Assembly: GCA_020354645.1 (NCBI GenBank)
Contig: CP070652.1
Location: forward strand, 190,330-254,329
Length of the DNA: 64,000 bases
Reading direction: 5' to 3'
Origin: Deltaproteobacteria bacterium
Lineage (GTDB): Bacteria; Desulfobacterota; Desulfobacteria; Desulfobacterales; G020354645
The translations under genes were made by a program, and so were the position numbers. Positions 1 to 55,465 of the stretch are shown piece after piece. The notes beneath the pieces are model-generated. The model was not told the origin of the DNA, did no database searches, and saw only the letters and a list, made by a program, of their open reading frames with translations. The first letter of the stretch is position 1. Each line of letters begins with the position of its first letter.

Positions 1-659
1 CTGGTTACGATATTCGAAGAGCTGTCATACCCATAAACATCATGGGTGGCAGGATCGTAAACCTGGCAGCCGCTGGAAAGAATAATGGAACCCACGTTAA
101 GTGTAAGGTCTCTTTGCTCGTCATCAAATTTGACGGCACCGGTGGGGCAAAACTTTTCACAGGCTTTACATTTACCCTTAATGAAATAGATGCAGTAATC
201 CGGATCGATGGCATACTTCAGGGGTACCGCCTGGGGATACTTTACATAGGCTGCTTTACGCTTGACAAGCCCTGCATCGTATTCATCCACGACCTTTTTG
301 GGACACTTTTCGGCACACAGGCCGCAGGCGATGCATTTTTCCATATCAATATACCGGGGATACTGGATAACCTTTACTTTAAAATTACCCTCTTCTCCGG
401 ATATCTCTTTTACCTCGGACAGGGTCAGTAACTCGATATTGTTATGCCGGCCGACCTCGACCAGTTTCGGCGAAATAATTCACATGGCACAGTCATTGGT
501 CGGGAACGTCTTGTCCAGCTGCGACATGATCCCGCCAATGGAGGTCGATCTTTCAACAAGGTACACATAATAACCGGAGTCGGCCACATCCAGCGCAGCC
601 TGCATACCGGCAATACCGCCACCGACGACCATTACCGAACCAATCATCTCTTGTGACAT
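1..659 (-). CDS. hdrA: Heterodisulfide reductase subunit A-like flavoprotein, N-terminal part (gene continues past left window edge); in-frame TGA at 480-482 interpreted as selenocysteine
   Basis: Minus-strand translation from ATG 659-657 gives [59 protein letters not shown][TGA][18 protein letters not shown]...[14 protein letters not shown]... This shows a GxGxxG FAD fold and a CxxCxxCxxxCP ferredoxin motif typical of HdrA. The frame stays open to position 1. It is not in the ORF track because of the TGA and the window edge. Confidence 0.85.
450..471 (-). promoter_or_regulatory. Candidate bacterial SECIS stem-loop downstream of the hdrA UGA
   Basis: The mRNA reads UGA-AUUAUUUC-GCCGAAACUGGUCGAGGUCGGC. 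A GCCGA/UCGGC stem starts 9 nt after the UGA and its apical region contains GGUC. Position is consistent with bacterial SECIS elements. The structure was judged by eye only. Confidence 0.3.
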
Positions 660-661
660 CT

Positions 662-1537
662 CTACTCCTCAGATAAAAATCCTTTTATACCAGTAATATC
701 GATCTGATTCATGTTGAGACCCAAAGCCTTTTCGTCAATACCCATTCCAAGTCCAAGCAGCTGGGGGTATAAAATGGAAGGAAGTTGATGATTGCTTCCT
801 CTTTTTGAAACAATCATCTGCTGAACATTATCGAATTGCAGTTGACACCAGGGGCAGGCCGAACAAAGATAGTCTGCACCGGCCTGCTTTGCGTCTGCCA
901 GTTTTTTTTGAGTGAGATCCATGGAAAGATCATCATTGATCCCCATCAGAGGAGCACCGCAACACTCCAGCTTCAACGGCCAATCCACACTTTTGGCACC
1001 GGTAACCTTTACCAGTTCATCGAAAATGACCGGTGCCGCCGGATTGTCAAACTGCATGATCTCACTGGGACGCAAAGCATGACACCCATAGTGGGTGGCG
1101 ATTTTAAGATCTTTAAATGCCCAGTTTATCTTCTCTTTCAAAGCGGGTATACTAATATTTTTGTAAAGCACCGCTAGATAATGAACCACCTCAAGATTTC
1201 CGTTGTAACCGAGTCCTTCTTTAGCCAGAAGAGCATTGACAGTATCCCGCAGCGATTTATCCTCTTTGAGGAGGTGATCTGCCTTCTTAAGACTGCCATA
1301 GCAGCACTTGCAGAGGGTCATCATGTCCAGACCCTGTTTCTCCGCCAAAGCCAGGTTTCTGGCAGAAAAAATAAGATAGGTATTAAAATCCGCATTGCGC
1401 ATCGGATATCCGCAACAGTTAAATTCACGGATATCAGACACATCGACATTCAGCCGGTTGAGCACCGCTCTGGCGGAAAGCTCATATTGCTCAACACGGG
1501 CCGGTATATTACACCCAATAAATAATGCAAATTTCAT
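662..1537 (-). CDS. hdrB: HdrB-like CCG-domain iron-sulfur protein
   Basis: Two Cys-rich CCG motifs (FNCCGYPMR and [10 protein letters not shown]), each with nearby CxxC pairs. The stop lies 2 nt from the hdrA start, so the two are co-transcribed. Confidence 0.8.
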
Positions 1538-1925: not shown

Positions 1926-3698
1926 TTATTTGGTTATTGTCTCCTTTTTATCTGTCGCAAATGTTTCTTTTAGCGCCTGATTTTTCAGTTCATAGAGTAC
2001 ATCGGTTACCTTGACTCCCTGGGGACAGTGTTCCTGACATTGATAGCAGGTCAGGCAGTCCCACAGCATCCGTGAACCCATCGCCAAATCCTTCAAGCCC
2101 AGTCCCAACGCACGCATGATCTGGTGGGGTAGCATCCCCACAACTTCTTGGGGGTTTTCATAGTTTTCTACCACCGGACAGACCGTGCTGCAGTTTTCGC
2201 AGGAAAAACAATATGAGTAGGTATGGGCCTGGCCCGAACGATCGGCCTTTTCCTTAAAACCTTTATTGATGGGAGTTAAGGGAATGATCTTTTCAGGCTG
2301 GTTGATTAATTCGAAATTATCAGCGATCGCCTTTCTGGCCGCATCCAGTGGGTTGGAATAATCGGCGGCTTCAAGGCTCTCGCGGTTCAATCCTCGGTAC
2401 CATGAATACTGTGAAAGGACCAAGGGAACAGGATGACCCTTTTGGATAAGTTCTTCCCTCACATTCAGCCACATATCCTTAAGTGTTATCCCGGCGGGGC
2501 AGAACACCGTGCAGCGGTCACAATTGGTGCACAGATAGATACCCTCTTGGATTGCCCTGAGCGCCTGACTATCAAGATCCTTGTTGGCGGCATAAGCCCT
2601 CAGGAATTGAATTTTTTCCGAAGGACGAATATTGCGATTGCCGACATTATCATAGGCTACAGCGACCGAGCACCGTAGACTGCAGGTATTGCAATGCATG
2701 CAGGCGTCTAGTTCGATTGCCTGGCGGGTAGCGATATTGGCCGGGGCAGACTTTGCTTTGTCCATAACCGCACCGACCATTAAACTTACCGGTGTGGCAA
2801 AGACATGGAACATCTTGCTGAACGGCAGGTAGGCCAGGCCGATAAAACAGCTCAGAATGTGAAAATACCACAAAAGGGTGACACCGCCGGCTTGATCCAG
2901 TGCACTCGCGATCGGACGGATGATTTTGCTGGCCGCATATCCGCTAAAAGCCGACTGGGGTTTGGAATGACAGTCCATGCAATACCCTTCATGGAGTTCT
3001 TCCCCCTGAGCCAGAACTTCTTCATCGAAAGGGGCCTCGAGGTTGGGGGAAACCAGCCCATAATGTTGAACCCAAAAACTTTCCAGGGGTTGAATTTCCT
3101 CTTGATCCTCCAAACCGGCATAATCTTCAACCATTCGCATAAATTCGCTATGGGAGGTAATCTTGAGACCCTCAAGGAATATTCCTGATAACATGACCAT
3201 GGCTACGATGATGATGGCATAACGGTCCATGATTGTGGATGAGAGACGGGGAACTTTGAGGATAAAGCGTCGGTAGATGGCAATCCCGATGCCGACAATC
3301 ACCATGAAGCCAAAGAGATCCCTCAGAAACATATACGGATTGACGGTAGAATAATAATCGCTGAACAGGGGCTCAGAGATTGAGCCTTCAAGGGCATGCA
3401 TCAGCACTAGCAGCATAAACCCCCAGAAAATGAGCATATGCATAAGCCAGCGGAGGTAATTCTCTCGCAAAATTCTGAGTTGCAGCAAAACATCAAGGAT
3501 GAAAACCTTAATCAAAATCAAGATTTTCCGACTAAAAAAAGTGGTCAGTATACCTCTTGTGGCCGCGGAAACCCTATCCGCAGTCGTGACCTGATGGGCC
3601 ATTATGCCGATTTTTCGTGTGAACCAGGTAGAAATCTTGTATATCAGGCCCAAAATAAAAATCGCGAGAGAGGTGTAAAATAATATATCAAAGACCAT
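1926..3698 (-). CDS. Membrane-bound Hdr/DsrMK-like redox protein: N-terminal polytopic NarI/DsrM-like domain fused to two HdrC-like di-cluster ferredoxin domains
   Basis: About 6 hydrophobic helices with conserved His residues at the N-terminus. Four CxxCxxCxxxC(P) motifs follow (CMHCNTCSLRCS, CTNCDRCTVFCP, CFSCENCSTVCP, CLTCYQCQEHCP). One CMDCH (CxxCH) motif lies in a loop. Confidence 0.7.
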   Translation of the reverse strand: MVFDILFYTSLAIFILGLIYKISTWFTRKIGIMAHQVTTADRVSAATRGILTTFFSRKILILIKVFILDVLLQLRILRENYLRWLMHMLIFWGFMLLVLMHALEGSISEPLFSDYYSTVNPYMFLRDLFGFMVIVGIGIAIYRRFILKVPRLSSTIMDRYAIIIVAMVMLSGIFLEGLKITSHSEFMRMVEDYAGLEDQEEIQPLESFWVQHYGLVSPNLEAPFDEEVLAQGEELHEGYCMDCHSKPQSAFSGYAASKIIRPIASALDQAGGVTLLWYFHILSCFIGLAYLPFSKMFHVFATPVSLMVGAVMDKAKSAPANIATRQAIELDACMHCNTCSLRCSVAVAYDNVGNRNIRPSEKIQFLRAYAANKDLDSQALRAIQEGIYLCTNCDRCTVFCPAGITLKDMWLNVREELIQKGHPVPLVLSQYSWYRGLNRESLEAADYSNPLDAARKAIADNFELINQPEKIIPLTPINKGFKEKADRSGQAHTYSYCFSCENCSTVCPVVENYENPQEVVGMLPHQIMRALGLGLKDLAMGSRMLWDCLTCYQCQEHCPQGVKVTDVLYELKNQALKETFATDKKETITK

Positions 3699-4078: not shown

Positions 4079-5026
4079 ATGCCTCCTTCTGGCAAAAAAC
4101 CGAAAATAATTGTTATTTGCGGTCCGACCGGGGTCGGTAAAACCGCCGCGGCCATCGATGTCGCTGAAGAGATCACCGGTCAAATTGTCAGTGCCGACTC
4201 AATGCAAGTCTACCGATACATGGACGTTGGCACGGCCAAACCTACCCCCCTCGAGCAAAAAAAAATTAAACACCACATGATTGATATCGTGGACCCGGAT
4301 GAAGCGTTTGATGCGGCCCGATATTCCTTTCTGGCTCGCAAGAAAATTGTTGAGTTGCATTCTCAAAACACCATCCCTTTCATTGTCGGCGGTACCGGGT
4401 TTTATATAAAGGCGCTATTGCATGGTCTATTCCCGTCAGAACCGCTGGCGACCGGTGTTTGCAATAAACTAAAAGACGAGGCTGCCGCCATTGGATCAGA
4501 ATCGCTTTACGAACGATTGGCAAAAGTGGATCCGAAAACCGCCCGCAGAATTCACCCCCATGACACGTATCGAATAACCAGAGCGCTTGAAACCTTTGAA
4601 GCAACAGGTGAGTCAATTTCCAAGTATCAGCAAGATCATCAATTTTCAGACACGCCTTTCAGTTTCTTGAAAATTGGTCTGACCATACCTCGAGAATTAT
4701 TGTACAAACGTATCAACCAGAGAGTGGATGCCATGATCGATGCGGGTTTTGTTGATGAAGTGAGAACTCTGTTGAAAATGGGTTACGCGGCAGACCTCAA
4801 ATCCATGCAGGCGATTGGATATCGTCACGTGGTCGCTTTCATTCAGGGACGTCTCCCCTGGACGGAGACAGTGCGGACCTTTAAACGTGACACCCGAAGA
4901 TATGCCAAACGGCAATTAACCTGGTTCGGAGCCGATCCCGAGATTTTGTGGACAGAGCCAGCAAGGATGAGTGATATGCGCACGAAGATAAAAGAATTTT
5001 TAAAAGCTAAAAATGCTGATTGCTGA
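4079..5026 (+). CDS. miaA: tRNA dimethylallyltransferase
   Basis: P-loop GPTGVGKT near the N-terminus, SADSMQVYRYMDVGTAKP motif, family-typical length of 315 aa. Confidence 0.93.
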   Translation: MPPSGKKPKIIVICGPTGVGKTAAAIDVAEEITGQIVSADSMQVYRYMDVGTAKPTPLEQKKIKHHMIDIVDPDEAFDAARYSFLARKKIVELHSQNTIPFIVGGTGFYIKALLHGLFPSEPLATGVCNKLKDEAAAIGSESLYERLAKVDPKTARRIHPHDTYRITRALETFEATGESISKYQQDHQFSDTPFSFLKIGLTIPRELLYKRINQRVDAMIDAGFVDEVRTLLKMGYAADLKSMQAIGYRHVVAFIQGRLPWTETVRTFKRDTRRYAKRQLTWFGADPEILWTEPARMSDMRTKIKEFLKAKNADC

Positions 5027-5324: not shown

Positions 5325-7097
5325 ATGGAAATCCAACACGATCGCAGGCGGTGGCTCAGAGAAATGTTAAACCCTCCTGAGATCGGGATTCTTTACACCG
5401 GTAATCAAGGGTTTATACCCGGAATCCATGTCACAAAACAACCAACGGCCTTCTACGTTGACTTACTCAATCGCAGCATGGGCGGTGTAATTTTAAAGAC
5501 AAAATGGGAAATCGAGCCCGAAATTATGTTTCATTTACAGATTTATAGTTCGCTTGAGGAATCTTGGGAGTTCATCCAGGTTAGAGCAAAATGGACAAAC
5601 AAAGACACGACCAATCCCGAATATAACCTCATTGGCGTGGAGTTTGAAGCACCGGACCAAATGATGGAGCAACCCAAACTCGACCAAGCGCAGAATAAAA
5701 AAATACCTCTACCCTGCGATTATGAGTTTTTGAGAAACACACGATTGTTTAAGTCCGTTCACAGGAATGTCGCATGCCCGCTTTTGAACAGCTTAATACA
5801 CAAAAAAATAAAAGCCGGTGAAAGAATCATCACTCAGGGAGCCAGAAATGATTCCCTCTATATTATTCAGCAAGGAGCATGCATCACCAAAGTAGAAAAA
5901 CATAAAAAACTATATCCCGTGGGAAGATCGCTTGAGGGTGATCTCATTGGAGAAATGGCGATTCTTGCAGAAAAGCCGCAAAGCGATCATATTGACGCTG
6001 AAACCGATATGCAACTCTGGGGGCTGAAAAGGGTCCAGTTTGATAAGATTGTAACTGAACATCCTGAATTAAGGAATTTTCTTACCGAGCTTCTGGCTGA
6101 ACGCTTTTCGTCACAGAGATTGCTCGCGGAAAAAAGAATCGGAAAATACGCTGTGACCGATACCATCGGCGATGGTCCCAATAGCATTGTATATAAAGGA
6201 ATACACGCCGAACTGGGCATCCCGGTTGCTGTCAAGATGATCCGTCATGATTTAGCCATGGATTTGGACTTTCTGCGAGGCTTCCAAAAGGAGGCCAACG
6301 CTATTGCCAATCTGAACCATAAGAACATTGTAAAAGTGTATGACATCGAAGAGCGATTTAGAACGCTATTTATCATCATGGAACTGATGGAGGGCGAAAC
6401 CATTGGATCGCTCATTAAACGATGGAAAACGATTCCGATTGCTCAGACGACAGCTTTTTTAATCCAGATCTGTTCCGGTCTGGTTTATGCCCATCAACAG
6501 GGTATGATCCACGGAATTATCAAACCATCAAATCTTTTTGTGAATCAAGATGGCGGTTTGAAAATACTAGACTTCGGCCTTGGGATACGGCATGGAGCCA
6601 AAGATCTTAATTTGTCAGGTGCAACGGCGGCCTACATGCCTCCTGAGCAGATTAGCGGCAGCACGGTTGACGAACGCAGCGACATATATGCCTTGGGTAT
6701 CACTGCTTATGAAATGTTAACAGGTAAAACGCCTTTTTCAGAAGACAATACCCGAACCAAAATGGATATGCCTTTGGAACATAATGTTCCGGACCCCGCA
6801 GGCCAGGTGCCAAACTTACCGGAAATCTTACGACGTTTTATACTTAAAACCTGTGCCAAAAATCCGGATGAAAGATATCAAAGTGCGGCATCAGCCCTAA
6901 ACGATCTTCAAGTGCTCGCAAAGTCATATGGGCTGGAGTCCGAGACCCAACCCTCAAAAAAACGAAAAATGTTAACGTTGTTTTTACTTTACAACGAAGA
7001 ACATCAGCTTGAGCTTAAACAGTTATTGGAAGAGTTCACTAACAAAACACGAAAATTAAGGGTTGACCTTAAAGCGGCTGATTTCAAAGACATATAA
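5325..7097 (+). CDS. Multidomain signalling protein: PilZ-like N-terminus, cyclic-nucleotide-binding (CAP_ED) domain, Ser/Thr kinase-like domain with degenerate catalytic loop
   Basis: RRWLR (RxxxR) and NRSMGG (D/NxSxxG) are PilZ-like motifs. GDLIGEMAIL is the cNMP-domain core. Kinase motifs VAVK, DFG, PPE and DIYALG are present. HGIIKPSN replaces HRDLKPxN, so the catalytic Asp is missing. Confidence 0.75.
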   Translation: MEIQHDRRRWLREMLNPPEIGILYTGNQGFIPGIHVTKQPTAFYVDLLNRSMGGVILKTKWEIEPEIMFHLQIYSSLEESWEFIQVRAKWTNKDTTNPEYNLIGVEFEAPDQMMEQPKLDQAQNKKIPLPCDYEFLRNTRLFKSVHRNVACPLLNSLIHKKIKAGERIITQGARNDSLYIIQQGACITKVEKHKKLYPVGRSLEGDLIGEMAILAEKPQSDHIDAETDMQLWGLKRVQFDKIVTEHPELRNFLTELLAERFSSQRLLAEKRIGKYAVTDTIGDGPNSIVYKGIHAELGIPVAVKMIRHDLAMDLDFLRGFQKEANAIANLNHKNIVKVYDIEERFRTLFIIMELMEGETIGSLIKRWKTIPIAQTTAFLIQICSGLVYAHQQGMIHGIIKPSNLFVNQDGGLKILDFGLGIRHGAKDLNLSGATAAYMPPEQISGSTVDERSDIYALGITAYEMLTGKTPFSEDNTRTKMDMPLEHNVPDPAGQVPNLPEILRRFILKTCAKNPDERYQSAASALNDLQVLAKSYGLESETQPSKKRKMLTLFLLYNEEHQLELKQLLEEFTNKTRKLRVDLKAADFKDI

Positions 7098-24534: not shown

Positions 24535-25521
24535 TTAATGTTTTTTGTATCGGTTGGCAATAATGTCGGTCAGCAAAGATATATCCACGTTGCTGCCACT
24601 GACAACGACTGCCACATTCTGTCCCAAGTCGGTTATGTGATCGTGCAGGATTGCAGCAATACCAACTGCTCCCGCTCCCTCCACAACCAAGCGATGCGTA
24701 TCAAGCGCAAAGCGCATTGCGGCAGCGATTTCTTCCTCAGAGACCAGCACGATGTCATCGACGGTGTCCCGTACAATCGGAAAGGTGTAAGCATTGTCCA
24801 ATCCGATACCTCCAAGGAGGGCATCAGCCAGACTGTCTTTTTCTTCCACTTCAACCGGCTTGCCGGCTTTTAAGCTATGGTACATAGCCGGTGCGCAATC
24901 CATGGAGACACCGATGATTCGAATCCGCGAATCGGCGGATTTCAGAGCCAGGGCGATCCCGGCGATGAGTCCCCCGCCGGACAGCGGAACAACAACGCTG
25001 TCAACATTGGGAAGGTCTTCGAGAATTTCAATTCCTATAGTCCCCTGGCCCGCAATGATCATAGGATCGTCAAAAGGATTGATCATGGTTAATCCACGGT
25101 CCTTTTCAAGCTTCAGTGCATGGTTGTATGCTTCGTCCTGGCTGCTACCGTGTTGAACAACTTCGGCCCCGAGCGTTTGCATGGCTTCCACCCGGTAGTG
25201 CGGAACCCGGTTGGAAAGGCATATGACCGCATGGATTCCCATTTGCTTGGCCATGTAAGCCACCGCTCGACCGTGATTTCCGGTGGAAAAAGCGATCACA
25301 CCGCATGATTTTTCCTGACTGCTCAAAGAGATAAGTTTGTTCGCAGCCCCGCGGGCCTTGAATGATCCGGTTTCCTGAAGGCTTTCGAGTTTTAAATGCA
25401 CGGAAGCTCCCGCCTGTTCTGAGAGACTACCGGAAAAAATTAACGGTGTTTTACGTACAGTGAGGGATATGCGGTCTCTTGCAAGATAAATATCCCGTAA
25501 GGTTATTTTGCGGTTTCCCAT
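24535..25521 (-). CDS. PLP-dependent threonine/serine dehydratase-family enzyme (EutB-like)
   Basis: LESLQETGSFKARGA carries the PLP-Lys motif. The GGGLIAG glycine loop is present. 328 aa with no ACT regulatory domain. Confidence 0.85.
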   Translation of the reverse strand: MGNRKITLRDIYLARDRISLTVRKTPLIFSGSLSEQAGASVHLKLESLQETGSFKARGAANKLISLSSQEKSCGVIAFSTGNHGRAVAYMAKQMGIHAVICLSNRVPHYRVEAMQTLGAEVVQHGSSQDEAYNHALKLEKDRGLTMINPFDDPMIIAGQGTIGIEILEDLPNVDSVVVPLSGGGLIAGIALALKSADSRIRIIGVSMDCAPAMYHSLKAGKPVEVEEKDSLADALLGGIGLDNAYTFPIVRDTVDDIVLVSEEEIAAAMRFALDTHRLVVEGAGAVGIAAILHDHITDLGQNVAVVVSGSNVDISLLTDIIANRYKKH

Positions 25522-27696: not shown

Positions 27697-28728
27697 TTAG
27701 TTCTTTTTGGCCCACTCTATGTCTTTGATAACCGCATCTAAGACTTCCTTTGCCCCTTCACCGCCCATCTTCAGATACTTTTGTCTAAGTGGTTTCGCTT
27801 TTTCCCTGAAAGCGCCAATCTCTTCATCCGTCAACTCGATATACTTCATTGTCGGTTTGGCCTTCATAATCATTTGCTTTCGCTGTTCGTTCAACGTAGG
27901 TTCAAAATCGAAAATATACTCATTGGCACTTTCGATGGCACTGTCTATCAGAGCTCGAATATTTTCCGGAAGGCCCCTAATAAATTCATAGTTGGCAGCA
28001 AAAGTTCCGATAAACGGCAGTTGATCGGCTTTGATCATGTAATCCTGGACCTCGTAGAATTTCATCTCCTGGATGGCAAAAAACGGCTGCGTTTCGGCAT
28101 CAATCCGACCTAACGCAAGGTCGTCGTAAATTTGACCATACGGGACTGTAATTACATAAGCGCCGTATAATCGGTAAGCAGTAATGAGAAGTGGTGAGGA
28201 CATCACTCGAAAAGTAATACCCTCGAAATCGGCTGGTTTGCGCAAGGGTTTATTGGCCGTCCAAATTTGCCAACCCTCTTCGATAATGGATAGGAGGTCC
28301 AGCTTGTGCTTTCTGTAATATTTTTGAAGGGCTTTATAAGTATTGGGCCCTTTGCGCAATATTTTCTCGAGGAGCTTGAACTCCGTTGGAAAAAGGTAGT
28401 GAATGGAAAAGACCTGAACCTCGGGAATATAGGAACCCAGGTGACCGGGGGATTGGAAGGCAAAATGAAGATCTCCCTTTTGCAGAAGTTCTGTGATATC
28501 TCCGGACGTACCGAGCTCTCCATATAAGTGAATGTTGCAGCGAATCTCCCCTTTAGATTTCTTCTCTATAATTTCGACAAACTTTTTTGCGTACTCATGT
28601 TGCATACTGCCTTCGATTTCTTCCAGAGCCACTTGCCACAAATATTGAACAGCACCGGCTCTTCCACTGAAGCCAAAGATTAGAGCGCATACTATAAATA
28701 CCGACATGAGCTCTGTTCTTCGTTTCAT
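27697..28728 (-). CDS. TRAP transporter substrate-binding protein (DctP family), copy 1
   Basis: Signal peptide. DctP-type blocks include the conserved Arg context (GITFRVMSSP) and FYEVQDY. Confidence 0.85.
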   Translation of the reverse strand: MKRRTELMSVFIVCALIFGFSGRAGAVQYLWQVALEEIEGSMQHEYAKKFVEIIEKKSKGEIRCNIHLYGELGTSGDITELLQKGDLHFAFQSPGHLGSYIPEVQVFSIHYLFPTEFKLLEKILRKGPNTYKALQKYYRKHKLDLLSIIEEGWQIWTANKPLRKPADFEGITFRVMSSPLLITAYRLYGAYVITVPYGQIYDDLALGRIDAETQPFFAIQEMKFYEVQDYMIKADQLPFIGTFAANYEFIRGLPENIRALIDSAIESANEYIFDFEPTLNEQRKQMIMKAKPTMKYIELTDEEIGAFREKAKPLRQKYLKMGGEGAKEVLDAVIKDIEWAKKN

Positions 28729-28773
28729 GGTTGCCCTCCTTCCACGGTTGTTAAAGATACGAATCCCTGCTTC

Positions 28774-30063
28774 TTACCCGCCCAAAGCAAGATTTGGTAG
28801 AAACAAGGCAATATCCGGCAGGGCGATCAGGATAATCGTTGCCAGTATCAGTATCAGAAGAAACGGAAGCGCGTGACTTATGACCTCAAGGTAGGGTCGT
28901 CTGAATATCAGCTGGGCAGTGAAGATGTCACACCCAAACGGCGGCGTGGCCGAACCGATGGCAGCTTGCAATGTCACAAGCGTTCCAAGGAGAATGGGGT
29001 GAACGCCCGCACTGACAACATAGGGCTGAAAAATAGGGCTCAATATGAATATGGCTACAATCGGGTCGACAAACATGCAGGCCACAAAATATACGGTGAC
29101 AATGATAACGATCACCCTGAGCATCGACGGATCCGTTCCAAAAAGCGGTGGCAGGAGTTGCTGAGGAATCTGCATAAAGCCGATCATCCATGAAAACGCC
29201 TGTCCAGCGCCAACTAAAATGAACACCACACCGGTAATCACCCCGGTCTGTAAAAAGGAGTCAATAATTCTGTCAAAAGTAAGACTTCTATAGACGATTA
29301 TCTCCAGAAACAGCGCATAAAAAACAGAAGCCGCAGCGGCCTCGGTCGGACTGAAAATCCCTGCGTAGATTCCGCCCACAATGATAAACGGAAAGCCCAT
29401 GACCGGGAGCCCGTCTTTGATGGCTGCCATCCGCTCCGACCAGCTTGCCTTGGCCAGGGTCCCGACTTTTTTCATCTTTGAATAGATATAACAATATACA
29501 GAAAACATCACCAGTATCAGCAGGCCTGGAAAAACACCGGAAAGAAACAGCATCCCGATGGAGGTGCTGGTGGCGACGCCGTACACGATAAACCCGATAC
29601 TGGGGGGGATCAAAAAGGCAATATCACTTGAATTGATAATCAGCCCCAGTGTAAAAGAGCTTTTGTAGCCCGCTTCCATCAACATGGGGCGCATGGTGCC
29701 CCCAATAGCGGCCACAGTTGCCTGTGTCGACCCGGAAACCGCACCGAAGAGCGTACAGCTGGCATTGGTCGTAATCGGCAGACCTCCCGGAAGATGGCCG
29801 ACAAAGGCTTTGATCATCCGTATTAATCTGCCCGCGGACTCTCCGGATGTGATAATGCTGGCCGAAAGAATAAACATTGGCACACACACAAGCGCCGGTG
29901 GGGTGACCCCCGTAATCACCTGCTGAACCATCGTTGTAACCAGTTTCGGCGCAAAATCCGGCATATAGACATACACGTACAATATCAGGGATCCCAAAAG
30001 GGTTACCATAAAGGGAAACCCGAACAGCAACATGCTTGCAAGACTGATTCCAAAAAGTGTCAT
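28774..30063 (-). CDS. dctM: TRAP transporter large permease
   Basis: 429 aa polytopic membrane protein. 4-nt overlap with the upstream small-permease gene. Confidence 0.9.
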   Translation of the reverse strand: MTLFGISLASMLLFGFPFMVTLLGSLILYVYVYMPDFAPKLVTTMVQQVITGVTPPALVCVPMFILSASIITSGESAGRLIRMIKAFVGHLPGGLPITTNASCTLFGAVSGSTQATVAAIGGTMRPMLMEAGYKSSFTLGLIINSSDIAFLIPPSIGFIVYGVATSTSIGMLFLSGVFPGLLILVMFSVYCYIYSKMKKVGTLAKASWSERMAAIKDGLPVMGFPFIIVGGIYAGIFSPTEAAAASVFYALFLEIIVYRSLTFDRIIDSFLQTGVITGVVFILVGAGQAFSWMIGFMQIPQQLLPPLFGTDPSMLRVIVIIVTVYFVACMFVDPIVAIFILSPIFQPYVVSAGVHPILLGTLVTLQAAIGSATPPFGCDIFTAQLIFRRPYLEVISHALPFLLILILATIILIALPDIALFLPNLALGG

Positions 30064-30644
30064 ATCTGCGCCCCCCCGATATCTTCATCTTCATATTCGC
30101 TTTGTTGATCCGGCGACTGCCAGGCCTCCTTTTCAGTGAAATTCTTGATGATCGTTCTGATATACTGAATACAGGCAAGGCCGAACCCGATGGGAATGAT
30201 CACATAAAAAGTCCATTTCGGCACCCTCAGGGCGGGCGTCATATGCCCCATATTCATAGCGTTTATCAGATACTTATAAGAGAACCATGTCATAATCCCC
30301 ATCACAATGGCGCTGACAAGTGAAATGATGATGATGAACACCTTCTCCATTTTCTCTGGCATGGAATCTAGAAATGCCCCCATCCGAATGTGCCTGGCTT
30401 TTCTAACCGCATAGCTCACACCGGTAAATGTTGTCAGCATTACAAGGAACTTCGACACCTCTTCGGCAAAATAAATACTTTGGAAAAATGTTCGGGCAAA
30501 CACATTGGTGATAAGCAGTATCCCAAGTGACGCGACGCAAAAAACCAGAATTGACACCTCAACAGCATTGACTGCCGAACCGAGATACCTGTTTAACTGC
30601 TGGAAATTGGTCAACTTTTTTGGATCATCATTTCTTTCGTTCAT
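30060..30644 (-). CDS. dctQ: TRAP transporter small permease
   Basis: 194 aa, 4 TM helices, positioned directly upstream of and overlapping dctM. Confidence 0.85.
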   Translation of the reverse strand: MNERNDDPKKLTNFQQLNRYLGSAVNAVEVSILVFCVASLGILLITNVFARTFFQSIYFAEEVSKFLVMLTTFTGVSYAVRKARHIRMGAFLDSMPEKMEKVFIIIISLVSAIVMGIMTWFSYKYLINAMNMGHMTPALRVPKWTFYVIIPIGFGLACIQYIRTIIKNFTEKEAWQSPDQQSEYEDEDIGGAQI

Positions 30645-30715
30645 TGTTCACCTCTACCGTCAACAGGCTAAGGCACTGCAGCAATCATGCTGCTGCAGTG
30701 CCTAACAATGGTCCG

Positions 30716-31816
30716 CTATTTAATGTTTAGTGCTTTTTTTGCATTCTTGATATCCTTAAGAAGGGCATCGAGCATTGCCTGGGAACCTTCACCGCCGATT
30801 TCGATATATTTGGGATATACCGTTTCAGCCCTTTTCTTGAATGTGGCAATGGTGGCGTCATCCAGCACAGTAAACTTTAACTTGGATTTGGCCTTTTTCA
30901 TTTTTTCTTTATCGCTGGCATTTCTTTTAGTAATCCATTTCCCAGCAGGGATGATCGCATCGATCCAGAACTTGCGCATCTCCTGCTGAACCTCTTCGGG
31001 AAGGCTGTCAAAAAATTTCTGATTGACCGTGGGAATCCCCACAAACGGTTCGCTCTTTAGCTGAGTGCAGTAGTTCTGTACTTCATAGAACTTCATGCTA
31101 TAGATCGCAAAAAGCGGGTTGACCTGGGCATCAATAAGGCCCATCTGAAGCCCGCTGTAAACTTCCCCGTAGCTCATGGGCGTCGGAGCGGCCCCGTAAG
31201 CCTTGTAGTCTTCCACCAGCAGCTTCGAAGACATGAGTCTGAGCTTGAGACCTTTCATGTCATCCAGCGAGGTGATCGCCTTTTTGGAAGTCAGCCATTG
31301 CCACCCTTCAAACATTATCGACAGCGGCACCAGACCGTTCTTCCGGAAGGCCTCTTCCATCAGCGGCATGAACTCGCCGTTTCTGGCCATCCAGTCTAAT
31401 ACTTCCGGCACTTTTTCAGTGGGGAAGATATAGTTCAGCGCTAAAACCTGGGCCTGGGGAACAAATGAGCTGATCCAGGCGTAATCGGAAAAAACAAATT
31501 CTACCACCCCGAGCTGAGCCAGTTCATTGATATCGCCGCTGGCACCCAGCGTCCCGTATGGATATACATTAATATCAATCTTTCCGCCGGACCACTTTTT
31601 CATGTGATCAGAGAAATTTCTGGCCCAGACTGTCATAAAATCGCCTTCTATTTCTTCTGATGCCAGTCGCGCTTTAATGACCCTTCCCTCGTACTTCGCG
31701 GCAGAGACAATGCCGACACTAAAGATAAGCAAAAGCATCACTGTAATACTGATAATTTTTTTCACGGTAATACTCCTTCCTTTCCGGATTCGCAAAGCAG
31801 TCTTTTTACTTCGCAC
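30716..31816 (-). CDS. TRAP transporter substrate-binding protein (DctP family), copy 2
   Basis: Paralogous to 27697-28728. Shared blocks include EEIEG, YG.LG.SGDI.EL, GLKLRLMSS and MKFYEVQNY. Confidence 0.85.
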   Translation of the reverse strand: MRSKKTALRIRKGRSITVKKIISITVMLLLIFSVGIVSAAKYEGRVIKARLASEEIEGDFMTVWARNFSDHMKKWSGGKIDINVYPYGTLGASGDINELAQLGVVEFVFSDYAWISSFVPQAQVLALNYIFPTEKVPEVLDWMARNGEFMPLMEEAFRKNGLVPLSIMFEGWQWLTSKKAITSLDDMKGLKLRLMSSKLLVEDYKAYGAAPTPMSYGEVYSGLQMGLIDAQVNPLFAIYSMKFYEVQNYCTQLKSEPFVGIPTVNQKFFDSLPEEVQQEMRKFWIDAIIPAGKWITKRNASDKEKMKKAKSKLKFTVLDDATIATFKKRAETVYPKYIEIGGEGSQAMLDALLKDIKNAKKALNIK

Positions 31817-31855: not shown

Positions 31856-33064
31856 TCACCTCCTTTTAAGGAATTTCAAATTGTCTGCATTATTAAAAAA
31901 ATTCAGCGCTCCTCTTACGTGCATTTCAACTCCGACGCGCAGTACGTCTTCATCGATGTTAAACCGCGGATGATGGTGCGGGAAATGCGTCTCCTTGGCC
32001 GGATTACCGGCACCGAGGAAATAAAAAGCGCCGGGCACCCGGGCGGCAAACTCTGAAAAGTCCTCACCAGCCAGTGTAACAATAGAGACAATCTCCGGCG
32101 TAGGATTTAGTTCGTGTGCTGCTACCGAACGGACCAAACCGGTCATCACCGGGTGGTTGATCAACGTAGGGTGGCCATACAGGAAAGAGAGGTCATACTC
32201 GGCACGGTGTGCTGCGCATATATGCGATACAACCCGCTCAAAGCGCTTTTTCGGGTTGCCCTGGCTTTCTTCGTCCCCCTCAAACAGATAGCGCATCGTT
32301 CCCGACAAGGTGACTGAATCCGGGATTACGTTGGATGCGGTTCCGCCCTCGATTTTGCCGAACATGATAATCGTAGGCTCCGTGAGCACATCGATTTCCC
32401 GCGTCTGGATGATTTGGACTCCCTGAATGATGCCGGCGACGGTAAGAATCGGATCGATGGCGCTTTGCGGTGTAGCCGTGTGACCACCCCGGCCCTTCAC
32501 GATCAGCTTGAAATGCTCCATCCCCGCCATCACCGGTCCTTCAGAAATACCAATCTGCCCGGTCTGAATCGGCGTCCAGATATGCAGCCCCAGGCAGGCA
32601 TCCACATGAGGATTTTCCATGACCCCTTCTTCAATCATTGCCAGAGCACCCACGTTTTCCTCATTGGGTTCAAAGACAAATTTGATGTTGCCTTTGATCA
32701 GTTCCTTACAGGCCGATAAAATCTTGGCTGCCACCAGCAACATGGCCACATGGGCATCATGGCCGCAGGCGTGCATGACACCGGCATTGACTGATTTGTA
32801 AGGGACATCGTTTTCCTCCTGAATCGGTAATGCATCCATGTCGGCCCGCAGCAGCAGCGTCGGGCCCGGCCGGTCGCCCCTCAGAATACCCACCACGCCT
32901 GTCCGGTTCATCCCGCTGACCTCAAGACCGCATCCCTCCAGATAAGCGGAAACCCTTTTGGATGTCCGATGCTCTTGCAGGCCCAGTTCCGGATGCCGAT
33001 GAAAATCGCGTCTCAACTCAATAACTTCATCATTGAGTTCGGCAATCAGTTTGGAAATTTCCAT
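31856..33064 (-). CDS. M20-family amidohydrolase (N-acyl-amino-acid deacylase / hippurate-hydrolase type)
   Basis: MHACGHDAH metal-binding block, FEPNEE, GGHTATP. 402 aa. Confidence 0.85.
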   Translation of the reverse strand: MEISKLIAELNDEVIELRRDFHRHPELGLQEHRTSKRVSAYLEGCGLEVSGMNRTGVVGILRGDRPGPTLLLRADMDALPIQEENDVPYKSVNAGVMHACGHDAHVAMLLVAAKILSACKELIKGNIKFVFEPNEENVGALAMIEEGVMENPHVDACLGLHIWTPIQTGQIGISEGPVMAGMEHFKLIVKGRGGHTATPQSAIDPILTVAGIIQGVQIIQTREIDVLTEPTIIMFGKIEGGTASNVIPDSVTLSGTMRYLFEGDEESQGNPKKRFERVVSHICAAHRAEYDLSFLYGHPTLINHPVMTGLVRSVAAHELNPTPEIVSIVTLAGEDFSEFAARVPGAFYFLGAGNPAKETHFPHHHPRFNIDEDVLRVGVEMHVRGALNFFNNADNLKFLKRR

Positions 33065-33903: not shown

Positions 33904-35091
33904 TTAATTTTTGATAAAAAGCTTTCGCGGAAAATCGGCAAATGTTTCACAGCCGTTTGCAGTAACCCGGAATGATTCACTGCACTCAAACCCCCAGTCG
34001 TCCATCCACATGCCGAGAATCATGTGGAAGGTCATATTCGGTTCCAGAATGGTCTTATCGCCGGGCCGCAAGCTGGCGGTATGCTCCCCCCAGTCCGGCG
34101 GGTAATTCAGGCCCATGGAATAACCGATTCTTGATTCTTTTTCGAAACCCTCTTTGGCAATATGGTTTCGCCATACCAGCTCCACTTCCTCACATTGCAA
34201 GCCGGGTTTGATGGCATCCAGAGTTAGATTAAGCCCTTCGACGGTAATATCTGCAAGCTGTTTTAGCTTTTCCGGTGGATTTTTCCCAATAAAAGCGGTG
34301 CGGGCAATGGGACAGTGATACCGATGCCGGCAGGCCGCCAGTTCCAGGTTCACGGCCTCCTCTTTTTTATAGGGATGGTCCGTCCATGTCAAATGTGGGG
34401 CTGAGGTCTTTTCCCCGGTGGGCATCATGGGAACAATGGCCGGATAGTCTCCACCGAATTCCGGGGTACCGCTGGCCTGAGCATGATAAACGGCTGCGAC
34501 GGCATCGCATTCCCTCACACCGGCGGCCAAAGTGTCAATGGCGGTTTGCATTACCTTACCTGCTATCTTTCCGGCTTGCTGCATGTATTCGATTTCCCCG
34601 GGAGATTTAATGATACGGATCCAGTTGACCAAGAGATTGCCGTCGATAAATTGGCTGTCGGGCAGACTTTTTTTGAGCTCTCCAAAACTGCGCGCCGTAA
34701 AATAATACGCATCCATTTCAACACCAATGGGTCTTTTTTCCCAACCGCGCTGCTTGATTTCATCAGCCACAAAATTCATGGGGTGTTTATCCAGGGCCTG
34801 GACATAATGATCCGGATACCCGATGATATGCTCGTGAGATAGAAACACGGTGTGCCTGGCACCGTTGGCATCCATGCCCCGGCCGATCCAAAATGGTTCA
34901 TCTTCATCCAGGATAACCATGACCACTTGCGGCGTGTAAAAAGACCAACCATCATAGCCGGTGAGATAATTCATGTTGGCCGGATCTGCAACCAATAGAA
35001 TCTCAATCCCCTGCCGGGCCATGCTTTTTTTGGTTTTTTCAATCCTTGTTTTATATTCGTCAATTTCAAACAGCGCCATCATCTCCCCCAT
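33904..35091 (-). CDS. M24-family creatinase/ectoine-hydrolase-like protein (DoeA/EutD-like), copy 1
   Basis: Creatinase-type N-domain (LLVADPANMNYLTGYDGWSFY) plus a pita-bread C-domain (YPPDWGEHTASLRPGDKTILEPNMTFH). About 395 aa. Confidence 0.78.
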   Translation of the reverse strand: MGEMMALFEIDEYKTRIEKTKKSMARQGIEILLVADPANMNYLTGYDGWSFYTPQVVMVILDEDEPFWIGRGMDANGARHTVFLSHEHIIGYPDHYVQALDKHPMNFVADEIKQRGWEKRPIGVEMDAYYFTARSFGELKKSLPDSQFIDGNLLVNWIRIIKSPGEIEYMQQAGKIAGKVMQTAIDTLAAGVRECDAVAAVYHAQASGTPEFGGDYPAIVPMMPTGEKTSAPHLTWTDHPYKKEEAVNLELAACRHRYHCPIARTAFIGKNPPEKLKQLADITVEGLNLTLDAIKPGLQCEEVELVWRNHIAKEGFEKESRIGYSMGLNYPPDWGEHTASLRPGDKTILEPNMTFHMILGMWMDDWGFECSESFRVTANGCETFADFPRKLFIKN

Positions 35092-36440: not shown

Positions 36441-37391
36441 TCAACCGGTTACGGGAAGGACTAAATCACTGGCACCTTTCCCCGAAATCTTTAATTCCGG
36501 CGCGTGCCGCTGCACAATTTCCTGAACGATGGATGCAATTTTTACTTTTTCGCGGATAAGCCCCTGGTGCCAAGCTTCGGCAACCCAGGGTTTGTATATA
36601 TCTCCCTCCGAAGTACCCGGTTCAAATTTAAAATAGCACGGCGACGCGATCCGGGCGATTTCAGGGGCTTCGTAAGCGCGATACATGCCGCCGAATGAAT
36701 CCACGATAATGATATAAACATCCAAGGGTATATCTATGGCTTGACGGATGCTTCCCAAAATGGGAAGTGAGACATCGGATATCGGATTCATGGAGTTTAC
36801 CCCCATGGATTCAATTACTTTGGCACCTGCCGCACTGCAGTATCCGCCGAAAACCGAAAACTTGAATATGGTCTCTTTCGGAATAAGTCCTTCCGCCCGC
36901 ATTTTATTTAAAAGAAAAAGGACGCCTTCATCATAAACCAAAAACCCTCTGTGTCCGGCTTCGATATTTCTCATGATGTCTGCGATATGGTAAGAAACAT
37001 TATCCGAGCCCCTTAACCTGAATGCCTGCATGGCACCTTCAGCCGTCGAGATTTCCTTCGATCCCGCATCCCAGCCTTTTCGATGCCCGACGGTCATCAC
37101 AACTTCAATTTTTTCTTCATAGGCCATTTGGGCCATGGCTTTGAGCTCTTCGAAATCACAATATGTCGAACCCCCGACGGCTGCGATGGCCCGATGGATG
37201 GTCACATCTCTTTTGCGGGCTTCATCGATCATGGCCTCCATGGTTGAAGCTCTCTCGACCCCGGCAATTTCAATCCGGTAATTGGCGCCATCCGGGAAGG
37301 TTTTCGGGGATGTGGGCAGTTCGTATGCATCACGACCGGGAATGCCCTCTTTTTCCATAAAACCACGAATTTTCTTCAGTACTTCTGACAT
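36441..37391 (-). CDS. Conserved-looking protein of unknown function (316 aa)
   Basis: Clean ORF translationally coupled to the iclR stop (shared nt 37391). I could not recognise any catalytic motif. Confidence 0.55.
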   Translation of the reverse strand: MSEVLKKIRGFMEKEGIPGRDAYELPTSPKTFPDGANYRIEIAGVERASTMEAMIDEARKRDVTIHRAIAAVGGSTYCDFEELKAMAQMAYEEKIEVVMTVGHRKGWDAGSKEISTAEGAMQAFRLRGSDNVSYHIADIMRNIEAGHRGFLVYDEGVLFLLNKMRAEGLIPKETIFKFSVFGGYCSAAGAKVIESMGVNSMNPISDVSLPILGSIRQAIDIPLDVYIIIVDSFGGMYRAYEAPEIARIASPCYFKFEPGTSEGDIYKPWVAEAWHQGLIREKVKIASIVQEIVQRHAPELKISGKGASDLVLPVTG

Positions 37392-38212
37392 TATAGCCCC
37401 TCCTTATCATGATCGCCCGGATCGCCGAGTTGATGGGAAAGTTTGCTGCAAACTTCTCTAATTACTTTCCGGATTTGTTCGATACGCTGGTTTTTTAGCC
37501 GCATTGAAGGTCCAGAGACACTGATGGCATAATGAGCTTGACCCGTATGATTGAAAACCGGTGCAGCGACACACCTTAGACCGGCAGCCAATTCCTCATT
37601 ATCCACTGCAAATCCCTTCTTTCGAATTTTTTTAAGTTCTTTTTTAAGCTTTTCTTTGGAGGTAATCGTGTTGGGGCCAAGCGGTTGGAGCTTTTGCCCA
37701 GCCAAAAAATCATCCAGATCATCTGCAGGCAAATGCGCGAGAATCACTTTGCCCAGGGCGGTGCAGTAAGCCGGTGCAGTGGACCCCAACGGCGTGTCCA
37801 TGCGCAGAATCTCCCGGCTGTCGATTTTGTCCAAATGCAATATCCCCCGGCCGTTCCAGTATCCAAGATTGACAGTTTCATTGAAAGCGTTTGAAATCTC
37901 CTGCATGTAAGGGCGAGCAACCGATCGGATTTCAAATCTAGCGGCAACCTTCATTCCAAGTTCCAGTATCTTCAGAGTTGCCTGATACCGACCCTCGGTG
38001 TTTTTTTCAACATAACCCAAGTCACGGAGGGTGGCTAAAAATCGGTGGCTTCCGGCGCGGTTAATCCCTGAAATTTCGGCAACCCTTGAAACGGTTAACT
38101 CCTTCTCCGCTATGAGGAGTTCCAATATTTTAAGGCCCTTTTGAAGTGAGCTGATTTGGTAATATTTCTTTTTCGGTGGCGTCATCTTTATGGTTTTTGA
38201 ACTATGTCGCAA
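37391..38212 (-). CDS. IclR-family transcriptional regulator
   Basis: N-terminal wHTH (SLQKGLKILELL...LTVSRVAEISGINRAGSHRFLATL) plus a C-terminal IclR effector domain (AVDNEELAAGLRCVAAPV). The start may be the ATG at 38185. Confidence 0.9.
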   Translation of the reverse strand: MRHSSKTIKMTPPKKKYYQISSLQKGLKILELLIAEKELTVSRVAEISGINRAGSHRFLATLRDLGYVEKNTEGRYQATLKILELGMKVAARFEIRSVARPYMQEISNAFNETVNLGYWNGRGILHLDKIDSREILRMDTPLGSTAPAYCTALGKVILAHLPADDLDDFLAGQKLQPLGPNTITSKEKLKKELKKIRKKGFAVDNEELAAGLRCVAAPVFNHTGQAHYAISVSGPSMRLKNQRIEQIRKVIREVCSKLSHQLGDPGDHDKEGL

Positions 38213-38867: not shown

Positions 38868-40586
38868 CTACTCAATAGGGTTACGCGGATAAATCTCCAA
38901 ACCGGAGGCTGTTAATTCTACGACCAAATTGCATCGCCACTTTTCGATCTGCTGGGGCCAATCAATTCGGTAATGAACACCGCGGCTTTCTTCCCTGGCC
39001 AACGCGCATTGAATGATCGCTTCCAAGAGAATCAATAGGTTCCTGTTTTGGAGTACCTGTATCCATTCTGGATTATAGACGCGATCCTTGCAAGTAAGAC
39101 CAGATTGATGGTGTTCATGCGTGAGCTCTTTGAGAGAAGCCAGGGCCCCTTCAAGTTCCTGGCCATCGCGAATTGGGCCCACTTTCCCCCAAGCCCTTTC
39201 TTGAATCTTTTTCTTAACCATAAAGGTTGTATGGCTGCCTTTTCTTTCCAACGGAGCTTGGGCCTCCGTAACAATTTCATCGATTTGCGATTGGTCAACC
39301 ACTGACCCGTTTGCCTGTTTGGCATACTCGGCCGCCTTGCGACCGGCCATTTCACCTGCCACAAGTATCTCCATACAGGCATTTCCGGAAAGTCGGTTGG
39401 CGCCATGCAGCCCGCCGACCACTTCTCCTGCGGCAAATAGGCCCGGCAAAGAGGTCTGGCAATCCAGATCCACGTCGATCCCACCAACAAAAAAATGACA
39501 AGCAGGGCCAACTTCCAACGCTTCTCCCCGGGAGAGGATATCCCGGATGAATGAAAAGTCAAAGCCTTCAAACCGCCAATTCTTCTTCAGATGCAATTTT
39601 AAGGTCCGGTTGGCAAAATCATCCAAAATGTTGCGGGGTAGATGTGCTAGAGATAGATAAATGCCACCATTTGGTGTGCCGCGACCGTGCTTGACTTCAT
39701 AACCGATGGCTGCAGATAATTTGTCTCGCGTCGTTTTTTCGAGAAGTTCCGGATCCCAGCGGCGCATGAAACGCTCTCCCCGGCGGTTCAAAAGCCAACC
39801 ATCGAGAGAATCCACACTTTCTGCAACCAATGAAAAGGGAAAGTAACTGCCCCTGTAAGGCAGTGGTCCTATTAGGCAAAGTGGCATGAACTGTATCATT
39901 TCGAAGTCGACGAGACGGGCACCGGCTCGAAGGGCCATGGCGTAGCCATCGCCGGTGAGTTCCACTGCTCCGGTCTGGATAGGATACAGCATAGATCCGC
40001 CTCCTGTCGCCAGAATGACCGCGCGTGCGCGAAACACGGCAAATTCGCCGGTTCGCAAATCCAGCCCGATTGCTCCGATAACCGAATTTCCAGTGGTCAG
40101 CAGATCTATAACAAAGGTGTACTCTTTTACTGTTAGGTCAACGGAGCGCAGCTGTTTATTTAATACACGGACGATCTCTCGACCGGTGGTGCTGACACCC
40201 CGAGGATAACGGTGGCCTGGACACTGCATCACGCCTCTAATTTTCATGCCCCAGGCCATCATCTCTTTGACCCGTATCGGAGCTGCTTCAACAATTTTTT
40301 CAGCAAGGGGAAGGTTGTTGATGAATTTTCCTGCCCTTAAAATGTCTTCCAGAAAAATTTGAGGACTGTCTTTTGAATTTCCGACAGATAAGCCCAGAAC
40401 ATCGAAGATACTGGCCCCGTCGACGCTAATGTCTGCAGCAGCCATCAGGGTTGCACCGCTTTTCCCTATGCGTCCCTTGGTTACGATCAGTACTGAAGCC
40501 CCCTGTTTTGCCGCCGCGATGGCCGCTCGAGTGCCAGCACCTTCACTGCCGATAATCAAAACGTCGGTATCGTAAATAGTATTCAT
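38868..40586 (-). CDS. FAD flavoprotein of the succinate dehydrogenase / fumarate reductase / L-aspartate oxidase family
   Basis: DVLIIGSEGAGTRAA dinucleotide fold. GLFAAGEVVGGLHGANRLSGN and SRGVHYRIDWP blocks. The His used for covalent FAD in SdhA is absent (SGATLMAAAD), as in NadB. Confidence 0.85.
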   Translation of the reverse strand: MNTIYDTDVLIIGSEGAGTRAAIAAAKQGASVLIVTKGRIGKSGATLMAAADISVDGASIFDVLGLSVGNSKDSPQIFLEDILRAGKFINNLPLAEKIVEAAPIRVKEMMAWGMKIRGVMQCPGHRYPRGVSTTGREIVRVLNKQLRSVDLTVKEYTFVIDLLTTGNSVIGAIGLDLRTGEFAVFRARAVILATGGGSMLYPIQTGAVELTGDGYAMALRAGARLVDFEMIQFMPLCLIGPLPYRGSYFPFSLVAESVDSLDGWLLNRRGERFMRRWDPELLEKTTRDKLSAAIGYEVKHGRGTPNGGIYLSLAHLPRNILDDFANRTLKLHLKKNWRFEGFDFSFIRDILSRGEALEVGPACHFFVGGIDVDLDCQTSLPGLFAAGEVVGGLHGANRLSGNACMEILVAGEMAGRKAAEYAKQANGSVVDQSQIDEIVTEAQAPLERKGSHTTFMVKKKIQERAWGKVGPIRDGQELEGALASLKELTHEHHQSGLTCKDRVYNPEWIQVLQNRNLLILLEAIIQCALAREESRGVHYRIDWPQQIEKWRCNLVVELTASGLEIYPRNPIE

Positions 40587-41467: not shown

Positions 41468-41525
41468 ACATTATGAGGAAATGGCCCCCCGTCAATCAAT
41501 AATTACCAAAGAGGTGATTGCAATA

Positions 41526-55462: not shown

Positions 55463-55465
55463 TCC

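Follow-up and report, generated by a model that had tools for sequence, protein, structure and literature searches.

An in-frame TGA that very probably encodes selenocysteine, with its predicted recoding hairpin, in an HdrA-type flavoprotein gene of a Deltaproteobacteria bacterium

Results

The 5′ part of an hdrA-like gene at the window edge

The stretch of DNA analysed here (the window) comprises 64,000 nucleotides from a Deltaproteobacteria bacterium of the Desulfobacterales (assembly GCA_020354645.1, contig CP070652.1, positions 190,330 to 254,329 of the forward strand), and its first bases hold the beginning of a gene for an HdrA-type flavoprotein whose reading frame contains a TGA codon. 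When the reverse complement was translated, this minus-strand gene was found to start from an ATG at 659-657, to meet a single in-frame TGA at 482-480 and to continue with no later stop to window base 1, just as an earlier note on this DNA had described. The part of the gene in the window spans a thioredoxin reductase (TrxR)-like domain that binds flavin adenine dinucleotide (FAD), together with an inserted ferredoxin domain of the 2x[4Fe-4S] type; the frame beyond the TGA includes the segment CKACEKFCP. The features of this region, and the evidence by which each was placed, are as follows.

1..659, minus strand: 5′ part of the hdrA-like gene, 219 codons, reaching the window edge (translation, Pfam, PDB, NCBIfam)
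665..670, minus strand: GAGGAG, a Shine-Dalgarno-like sequence 5 nucleotides (nt) upstream of the ATG at 659-657 (read from the sequence)
664-662, minus strand: TAG stop codon of an hdrB-like gene, between GAGGAG and the ATG at 659-657 (read from the sequence)
606..623, minus strand: GGGIAG dinucleotide (FAD) binding motif, residues 13-18 (translation, Pfam, PDB alignment)
489..491, minus strand: TGT for Cys57, which opens the CxxU motif and has as counterparts Cys194 of HdrA and Cys59 of BamE (sequence and PDB alignment)
480..482, minus strand: TGA, predicted codon 60 for selenocysteine (Sec), equivalent to Cys197/Sec197 of HdrA and Cys62 of BamE (translation, homologs, related genomes)
447..464, minus strand: predicted bacterial selenocysteine insertion sequence (SECIS) hairpin, CUGGUCG-AGGU-CGGCCGG, with a 7-bp stem pairing 464-458 with 453-447 and an apical loop at 457-454 (minimum free energy (MFE) fold and conservation)
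300..335, minus strand: first [4Fe-4S] motif of the inserted ferredoxin domain, residues 109-120 (translation, Pfam, PDB alignment)

Only part of this was visible in the list of open reading frames (ORFs) of the window. The list has a 59-residue (aa) in-frame ORF covering the N-terminus (480..659) and spurious overlapping ORFs; the 3′ piece is unlisted because it runs past the window edge. After the TGA, the next in-frame ATG, GTG or TTG is that of Met106.

The TGA falls at a conserved cysteine of the HdrA family

Homology searches were carried out with the 219-aa fragment, placing a Cys at residue 60. Pfam returned FAD_oxidored, Pyr_redox_2 and Fer4, and the PDB matches took in every solved HdrA chain (8rvv_A, E=7e-69, and 5odc_A, E=2e-63, also 9sfi_A and 7bkb_A, with E-values ranging to 3.5e-45), which bears out the identification of the N-terminus read from ATG 659 as that of an HdrA. 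NCBIfam gave a match to HdrA2 (E=2e-79) that lies under its equivalog cut-off, and HdrA scores far below the cut-offs. The alignment to 5odc_A is free of gaps from query residue 9, which corresponds to chain residue 146, through the motif, and the GGGIAG region aligns with the start of the TrxR-like domain (5odc_A residue 146 onward). In this alignment Cys57 corresponds to Cys194, and residue 60, encoded by the TGA, to Cys197 of Methanothermococcus thermolithotrophicus HdrA (5ODC_A), the second Cys of the D-C-x-x-C motif, as had been proposed. Since the hdrA-like protein starts at the beginning of the TrxR-like domain, it is devoid of the ~140-aa N-terminal Fe-S domain of the methanogen HdrA.

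The same column was then read in the 120 best database proteins. It is occupied by Cys in ~108 of them and by Ser in one; a further protein (P0056) starts just after it, and the 10 closest (P0001, P0002, P0005, P0007-P0009, P0011, P0012, P0040 and P0053) carry a Trp there. The DNA of two of these Trp-containing proteins (P0001 and P0008, from loci L001 and L002) was read and proved to have a TGA at the column, and the Trp calls appear to be translations of UGA by the gene caller under a code of the table 4 type. Such a Trp or late start at the Sec column is a systematic mis-annotation of Sec-HdrA in metagenome pipelines, and it matches the earlier note's expectation that automated callers would split or drop this gene: several public records of the homologs are cut, restart downstream or write W.

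The TGA and the coding sequence beyond it are conserved in related genomes

Conservation of the codon was assessed in a scan of related loci that took one genome per species and retained the best 80 loci, the source genome not being among them. These loci come from Desulfobacterales, Syntrophobacterales, Desulfatiglandales and relatives, at 67-82% amino-acid identity, and contain 92 hdrA copies with the motif. The codon is TGA in 88 copies, which stem from ~75 species, TGC in three and TGT in one. Among the 88 Sec-type copies Cys57 (TGT in the window) is invariant (88 of 88), and codon positions 1 and 2 are near-invariant on both sides of the TGA. Position 3 is free to vary, with 1.5-1.9 bit in the codons for Val, Gly, Leu and Arg. 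This low entropy at the first two positions and high entropy at the third downstream of the TGA argues that the sequence is translated and under purifying selection.

A predicted recoding hairpin lies downstream of the TGA

The freedom of third positions is lost in one short block. At codons +5 to +11 after the TGA (AAA CUG GUC GAG GUC GGC CGG) third-position entropy drops to 0-0.57 bit, whereas the same amino acids elsewhere in the gene show 1.5-1.9 bit, and this block coincides exactly with the hairpin predicted by MFE folding at 464-447. The hairpin begins 15 nt past the UGA, and its apical loop stands 22 nt past it (positions 479-458). All seven stem pairs are canonical in 78 of the 84 distinct Sec-type sequences; the variants comprise one compensatory change, from C-G to U-A at the closing pair (L041), and others that remain compatible as G-U or A-U. 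The loop, AGGU, is constant across the distinct Sec-type copies of the main group, with the exception of L060 and L080 (AGUG).

The controls were 10 genes of the Cys type in which the KLVE[VC]GR[HN] peptide is likewise encoded, four taken from the genome scan and six fetched. Of the 83 Sec-type genes compared, 78 contain the exact 18-mer, as against none of these 10 (Fisher p = 4e-10). In the Cys-type genes the peptide is written with different synonymous codons, no more than 3-7 of the 7 pairs remain, and the loop is often AAGU.

The best-characterised example of a bacterial SECIS is that of Escherichia coli fdhF. Like the bacterial SECIS consensus, the window hairpin is located inside the ORF, downstream of the UGA, and has a 4-nt loop with G-G-U; its sequence differs in being specific to this HdrA clade and almost invariant across families, and no Rfam model covers it. 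We compared it to the consensus model of bacterial SECIS elements (the bSECISearch model; PMC13188914, Fig. 2A). That model calls for an apical loop of 3-9 nt (4 nt in the window), an upper stem of 4-16 bp (7 bp), a G at loop position 1 or 2, after which G or U usually comes (the loop reads A-G-G-U, with G at position 2), a spacing of 16-37 nt between UGA and loop (22 nt) and an MFE of -7.5 kcal/mol or lower (-9.1 for the hairpin alone, -10.2 in context).

The earlier note had placed the SECIS stem elsewhere, at 471-450. Its two arms, GCCGA at 471-467 and UCGGC at 454-450, are indeed present, but we rejected this stem as the SECIS: the pairing is complete in only 6 of 84 sequences, the third positions G471 and G468 vary freely, and its -6.2 kcal/mol falls short of the model's MFE limit. 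The element at 464-447 lies 7 nt further 3′.

Further Sec-type copies were seen in the related loci. Paralogous Sec-hdrA copies from these loci (ILSPKMLDVGRH) form a group with another hairpin, GAUGUC-GGUC-GACAUC, which is shifted 6 nt 3′. In some loci such a second, paralogous Sec-hdrA (ILSPKMLDVGRHPNI), with this shifted hairpin, is situated 4-6 kb downstream (L011:14820, L026:15256, L044:12041, L049:10382), and the copy at 10105 in L013 diverges directly past the motif and looks truncated or misassembled.

Weighing selenocysteine against other readings of the TGA

To summarize, the position of the TGA at a Cys column, its conservation, the purifying selection beyond it and the hairpin together make selenocysteine, as the earlier note had proposed, the best-supported reading. 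On these sequence comparisons, we consider it very probable that the TGA at 482-480 is a selenocysteine codon within the first 219 codons of an HdrA-type flavoprotein gene and that the hairpin at 464-447 is its recoding element. Several results weigh against this reading. Neither selA, selB or selD nor tRNA-Sec was found in the 64-kb window by ARAGORN and by NCBIfam scans of 50 ORFs, so that the Sec-decoding machinery, which we infer to be present in the source organism, is an assumption for this organism. Four-fifths of the gene, on its 3′ side, fall beyond the window edge and may contain further disruptions. The 66-nt local fold is no more stable than shuffled sequences (z = -0.4), a measure that is uninformative for a short hairpin, and there was no Rfam match at the gathering threshold over the whole window, nor at E<=10 over 380-540; the case for the hairpin is therefore a comparative one. 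Covariation, too, is minimal, with the change in L041 the only truly compensatory one, because the hairpin is near-invariant.

The absence of sel genes nearby would also suit a pseudogene or truncated gene, in which the TGA is a true stop that arose from TGC or TGT, either of them one base away, and leaves a dead gene or a 59-aa peptide; that only 219 codons fall in the window points the same way. We judge this highly improbable, as the same TGA is found in 88 hdrA copies of ~75 species, the sequence downstream evolves as coding sequence, and the orthologs run for ~950 more codons without another stop. Moreover, a 59-aa fragment would split the FAD-binding fold, and re-initiation at Met106 would not rescue the domain. 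A slightly better, though still very small, chance is given to readthrough of the UGA without Sec, whereby a near-cognate tRNA would supply Cys or Trp, or the Sec machinery was recently lost and the UGA and SECIS persist as relics. In its favour, the 64-kb window is devoid of sel genes and tRNA-Sec, and the partial SECIS remnants in Cys-type relatives show that Sec-to-Cys turnover has taken place in the clade. Yet the window hairpin is identical to the consensus 18-mer, which is synonymously constrained in Sec-type genes only. In addition, two of the four Cys-hdrA loci (L048 and L053) have a Cys-type version of mvhD, a gene often found beside hdrA (see below), which suggests a lineage-wide Sec-to-Cys conversion, with lineages that lose Sec converting the codon rather than keeping the UGA.

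We give practically no credence to a sequencing or assembly error, or to a reassigned code in which UGA means Trp or Gly (tables 4 or 25), even though the ten public gene calls of close homologs give a W. TGA ends 14 of the 46 other genes of the window and is therefore an ordinary stop in a code that has not been reassigned; the homologous residue is Cys, not Trp or Gly; and the codon is identical across independent assemblies. Stop-codon usage and cross-assembly agreement thus refute this explanation.

If selenocysteine is indeed encoded, the hairpin at 464-447 would, by analogy with characterised bacterial SECIS elements, recruit SelB with GTP and Sec-tRNA(Sec), and Sec would be inserted at the UGA in place of chain termination. 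The product would carry a Cys57-x-x-Sec60 motif in its thioredoxin-reductase-like FAD-binding domain. Judging from homology, Sec60 would most likely act with Cys57 in a selenenylsulfide or cluster-ligand switch, and this switch may relay electrons between the bifurcating FAD of the protein's first half and the Fe-S cluster of its second.

Our other searches for selenium-related genes were negative. No tRNA of any kind was detected in the 64-kb window, and no tRNA-Sec in 60 related loci. A scan of the window for ORF pairs joined by an in-frame TGA disclosed no convincing further selenoprotein gene; the pair at 33076-30716 was rejected as being two separate genes.

The whole protein is predicted to be a fused HdrA dimer

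As most of the gene lies beyond the window, its full length was judged from orthologs. Those in L004, L005, L007, L009, L016, L039 and others have 1005-1014 codons, exactly one in-frame TGA and two TrxR-like FAD domains. Their second half aligns to the methanogen HdrA from residue ~9, and so holds the N-terminal Fe-S domain; it has no inserted ferredoxin domain, and HETWDGGDVQ stands in place of the CxxC. By this comparison, the window gene would encode a fused HdrA-HdrA of ~1010 aa, of the BamE type, rather than a canonical HdrA of 650 aa. Its two halves are predicted to be complementary, the first having the CxxU and the inserted ferredoxin domain but no N-terminal domain, the second the N-terminal Fe-S domain but no CxxC.

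In L083, L084 and L085 (Cys-type homologs P0015, P0020 and P0010) the fused dimer is called as two overlapping genes, of 343-381 aa and 638-668 aa, reflecting either a natural split of the halves or a frameshift.

The gene neighbourhood

Two further genes of the same strand precede the hdrA-like gene.

662..1537, minus strand: hdrB-like gene, 291 aa, with two CCG domains, directly upstream of the hdrA-like gene (Pfam CCG, E=7e-25)
1926..3698, minus strand: membrane HdrC-like gene, 590 aa, with an N-terminal NarI-like transmembrane part and two HdrC-like dicluster domains (Pfam Fer4_8, twice)

The hdrB-like gene also matched NCBIfam CoB_CoM_SS_B, with E=7e-78 but under the cut-off, and is found in the same position in 26 of 70 related loci. 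Its stop codon falls between the ribosome-binding site and the ATG of the hdrA-like gene, which suggests translational coupling, and the two genes are probably co-transcribed. The membrane HdrC-like protein gave partial matches to Nitrate_red_gam in Pfam and to qmoC and HdrC in NCBIfam, and its gene is syntenic in 23 of 54 related loci. The order membrane HdrC-like, HdrB-like, hdrA is common to ~23-26 related loci, mainly the closest ones. Between the membrane HdrC-like and hdrB-like genes the window has a gap of 388 nt with no long ORF (1538-1925), which measures ~25 nt in orthologs such as that of L004.

On the other side, beyond the reach of the window, relatives revealed a second gene of interest. 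Directly 3′ of hdrA in L004 (13040-13520), L005 and L009 lies a VhuD/MvhD-like gene with an in-frame TGA of its own (GADGVWVSG*HPGECHY), and a motif scan of all loci detected Sec-type mvhD genes in 34, the majority immediately 3′ of hdrA. L041 is mixed, combining a Sec-hdrA with a Cys-mvhD.

Comparison with known HdrA systems

HdrA is among the listed selenoprotein families of prokaryotes, with CxxU as its motif (PMC13188914), and the statement of the earlier note that Sec-HdrA is known in methanogens and sulfate reducers agrees with the literature (PMC1794560, PMC2702500, PMC5109826, PMC13188914). Sec-HdrA was catalogued in Deltaproteobacteria in 2006, hdrA-hdrA fusions included (PMC1794560), and is abundant in the delta-symbionts of Olavius (PMC1976440). 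D. autotrophicum HRM2 has it as HdrA1, HdrA2 and HdrL (PMC2702500), and the annotation of D. multivorans gives HdrA, MvhD and BamE alike as Sec proteins whose genes have SECIS elements (PMC5109826). As for the role of the residue, in HdrA the [4Fe-4S] cluster in the N-terminal domain of the partner has Cys197 as a ligand, and in fused HdrA one half has Cys197 and no N-terminal domain and the other the reverse (PMC9012536). In M. maripaludis HdrA, Sec197 shows continuous density with a Cys between cluster A3 and the FAD, and a selenenylsulfide relay was proposed (PMC13518236). BamE of the G. metallireducens class II benzoyl-CoA reductase (BCR-II) is a fused HdrA dimer whose Cys59-Cys62 disulfide lies ~3.5 A from cluster E3 in one conformational state (bioRxiv 10.64898/2026.04.10.717634).

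With Sec-HdrA proteins such as M. maripaludis HdrA(U), with its Sec197, and HdrA1/HdrA2 of D. autotrophicum HRM2, the window protein shares the TrxR-like FAD domain and the position of D-C-x-x-U, and in relatives of the window gene a Sec-type mvhD/vhuD gene follows hdrA. It differs from the methanogen HdrA in having no ~140-aa N-terminal Fe-S domain and in that its orthologs are fused dimers of ~1010 aa, compared to ~650 aa; its predicted SECIS, moreover, is of the bacterial in-frame type and not of the archaeal 3′-UTR (untranslated region) type found in methanogens. A canonical methanogen-type HdrA (as in HdrABC-MvhAGD) was rejected in view of the start at the equivalent of residue 146 of 5odc_A and the NCBIfam HdrA scores far under the cut-offs.

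Another close system is BamE (from G. metallireducens, and with Sec in Desulfococcus multivorans). Like the orthologs of the window gene, it is a fused HdrA dimer, of ~1000 aa, in which the two halves complement each other. It likewise has an N-terminal TrxR1 domain with Cys59-x-x-Cys62 beside the bifurcating FAD, and an MvhD-like Sec adaptor (BamF) alongside. However, the neighbours in the window are the HdrB-like and membrane HdrC-like genes, with no tungsten BamB/BamC and no NuoEFG-like BamGHI. NCBIfam scans of the larger ORFs of the window gave no BamB- or BamC-like match, and downstream of the orthologs in L004, L005 and L009 are mvhD and a gene for an Fe-S protein, not BamGHI. BamE proper, which is encoded with bamBCD and bamFGHI, was rejected on this gene context; the cluster probably encodes a complex paralogous to that of BamE, with a different electron acceptor. 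The membrane Hdr-like complexes of the QmoABC and DsrMK type in sulfate reducers resemble the window cluster in that one or more HdrA-like flavoproteins are combined with a membrane protein in which HdrC-like Fe-S domains are linked to a NarI/HdrE-like part. In the window cluster, though, the HdrB-like CCG protein is separate and there is one fused HdrA-HdrA. Membership in either was unsupported, all matches being far under the family cut-offs.

Other loci in the window

A gene for a Ser/Thr protein kinase of 590 aa, whose N-terminal domain is of the cyclic-nucleotide-binding kind (5325-7097), adjoins miaA (4079-5026), and miaA is divergent from the hdr-like operon.

A large cluster for the degradation of ectoine or hydroxyectoine occupies 22971-43711. 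It holds two ectoine hydrolase genes of the DoeA/EutD type (33904-35091, minus strand, and 41481-42692, plus strand), eutB (24535-25521), a eutC-like cyclodeaminase gene (42713-43711), a DoeB-like amidohydrolase gene (31856-33064), two aminotransferase genes, an IclR regulator gene (37391-38212) and TRAP transporter genes with two DctP paralogs (27697-31816). A homolog of the TfrA-like (coenzyme M/coenzyme B (CoM/CoB)-type) fumarate reductase flavoprotein adjoins this cluster (38868-40586; E=2e-120, under the cut-off).

Finally, the gene at 55466-56659 matched the serine palmitoyltransferase family with 604 bits (cut-off 640), and its neighbours are an NAD-dependent epimerase/reductase-like gene and an ORF for which NCBIfam gave no match. 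The region as a whole (53358-56659) may be a sphingolipid-type lipid locus, in what appears to be a Desulfobacterales genome.

Discussion

The gene described here belongs, as an ordinary member, to a selenoprotein family that has long been known from sulfate-reducing bacteria, and adds nothing new on selenocysteine recoding or on HdrA. Its main value is one of annotation: gene callers cut such genes at codon 60, restart them downstream or translate the UGA as Trp, and with the mis-annotated gene a probable electron-bifurcating flavoprotein goes missing from metabolic reconstructions. The near-invariant 18-nt hairpin offers a simple signature for spotting Sec-type copies of this HdrA clade, and the Sec codon marks the organism as a probable selenium user.

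Only the membrane-linked gene cluster has some potential for novelty. The order hdrC-like, hdrB-like, hdrA is conserved in ~25 Desulfobacterales species, and it is conceivable, if on balance rather doubtful, that Sec-HdrA here belongs to an uncharacterised membrane-anchored bifurcating module made of the NarI-like/HdrC-like membrane protein, the HdrB-like CCG protein, the BamE-type HdrA-HdrA with its CxxU and a Sec-type MvhD. Were this the case, the module would be distinct from Qmo, DsrMK and BCR-II, and might link the menaquinone pool with flavin-based bifurcation or confurcation, its two selenocysteines serving as a selenenylsulfide relay.

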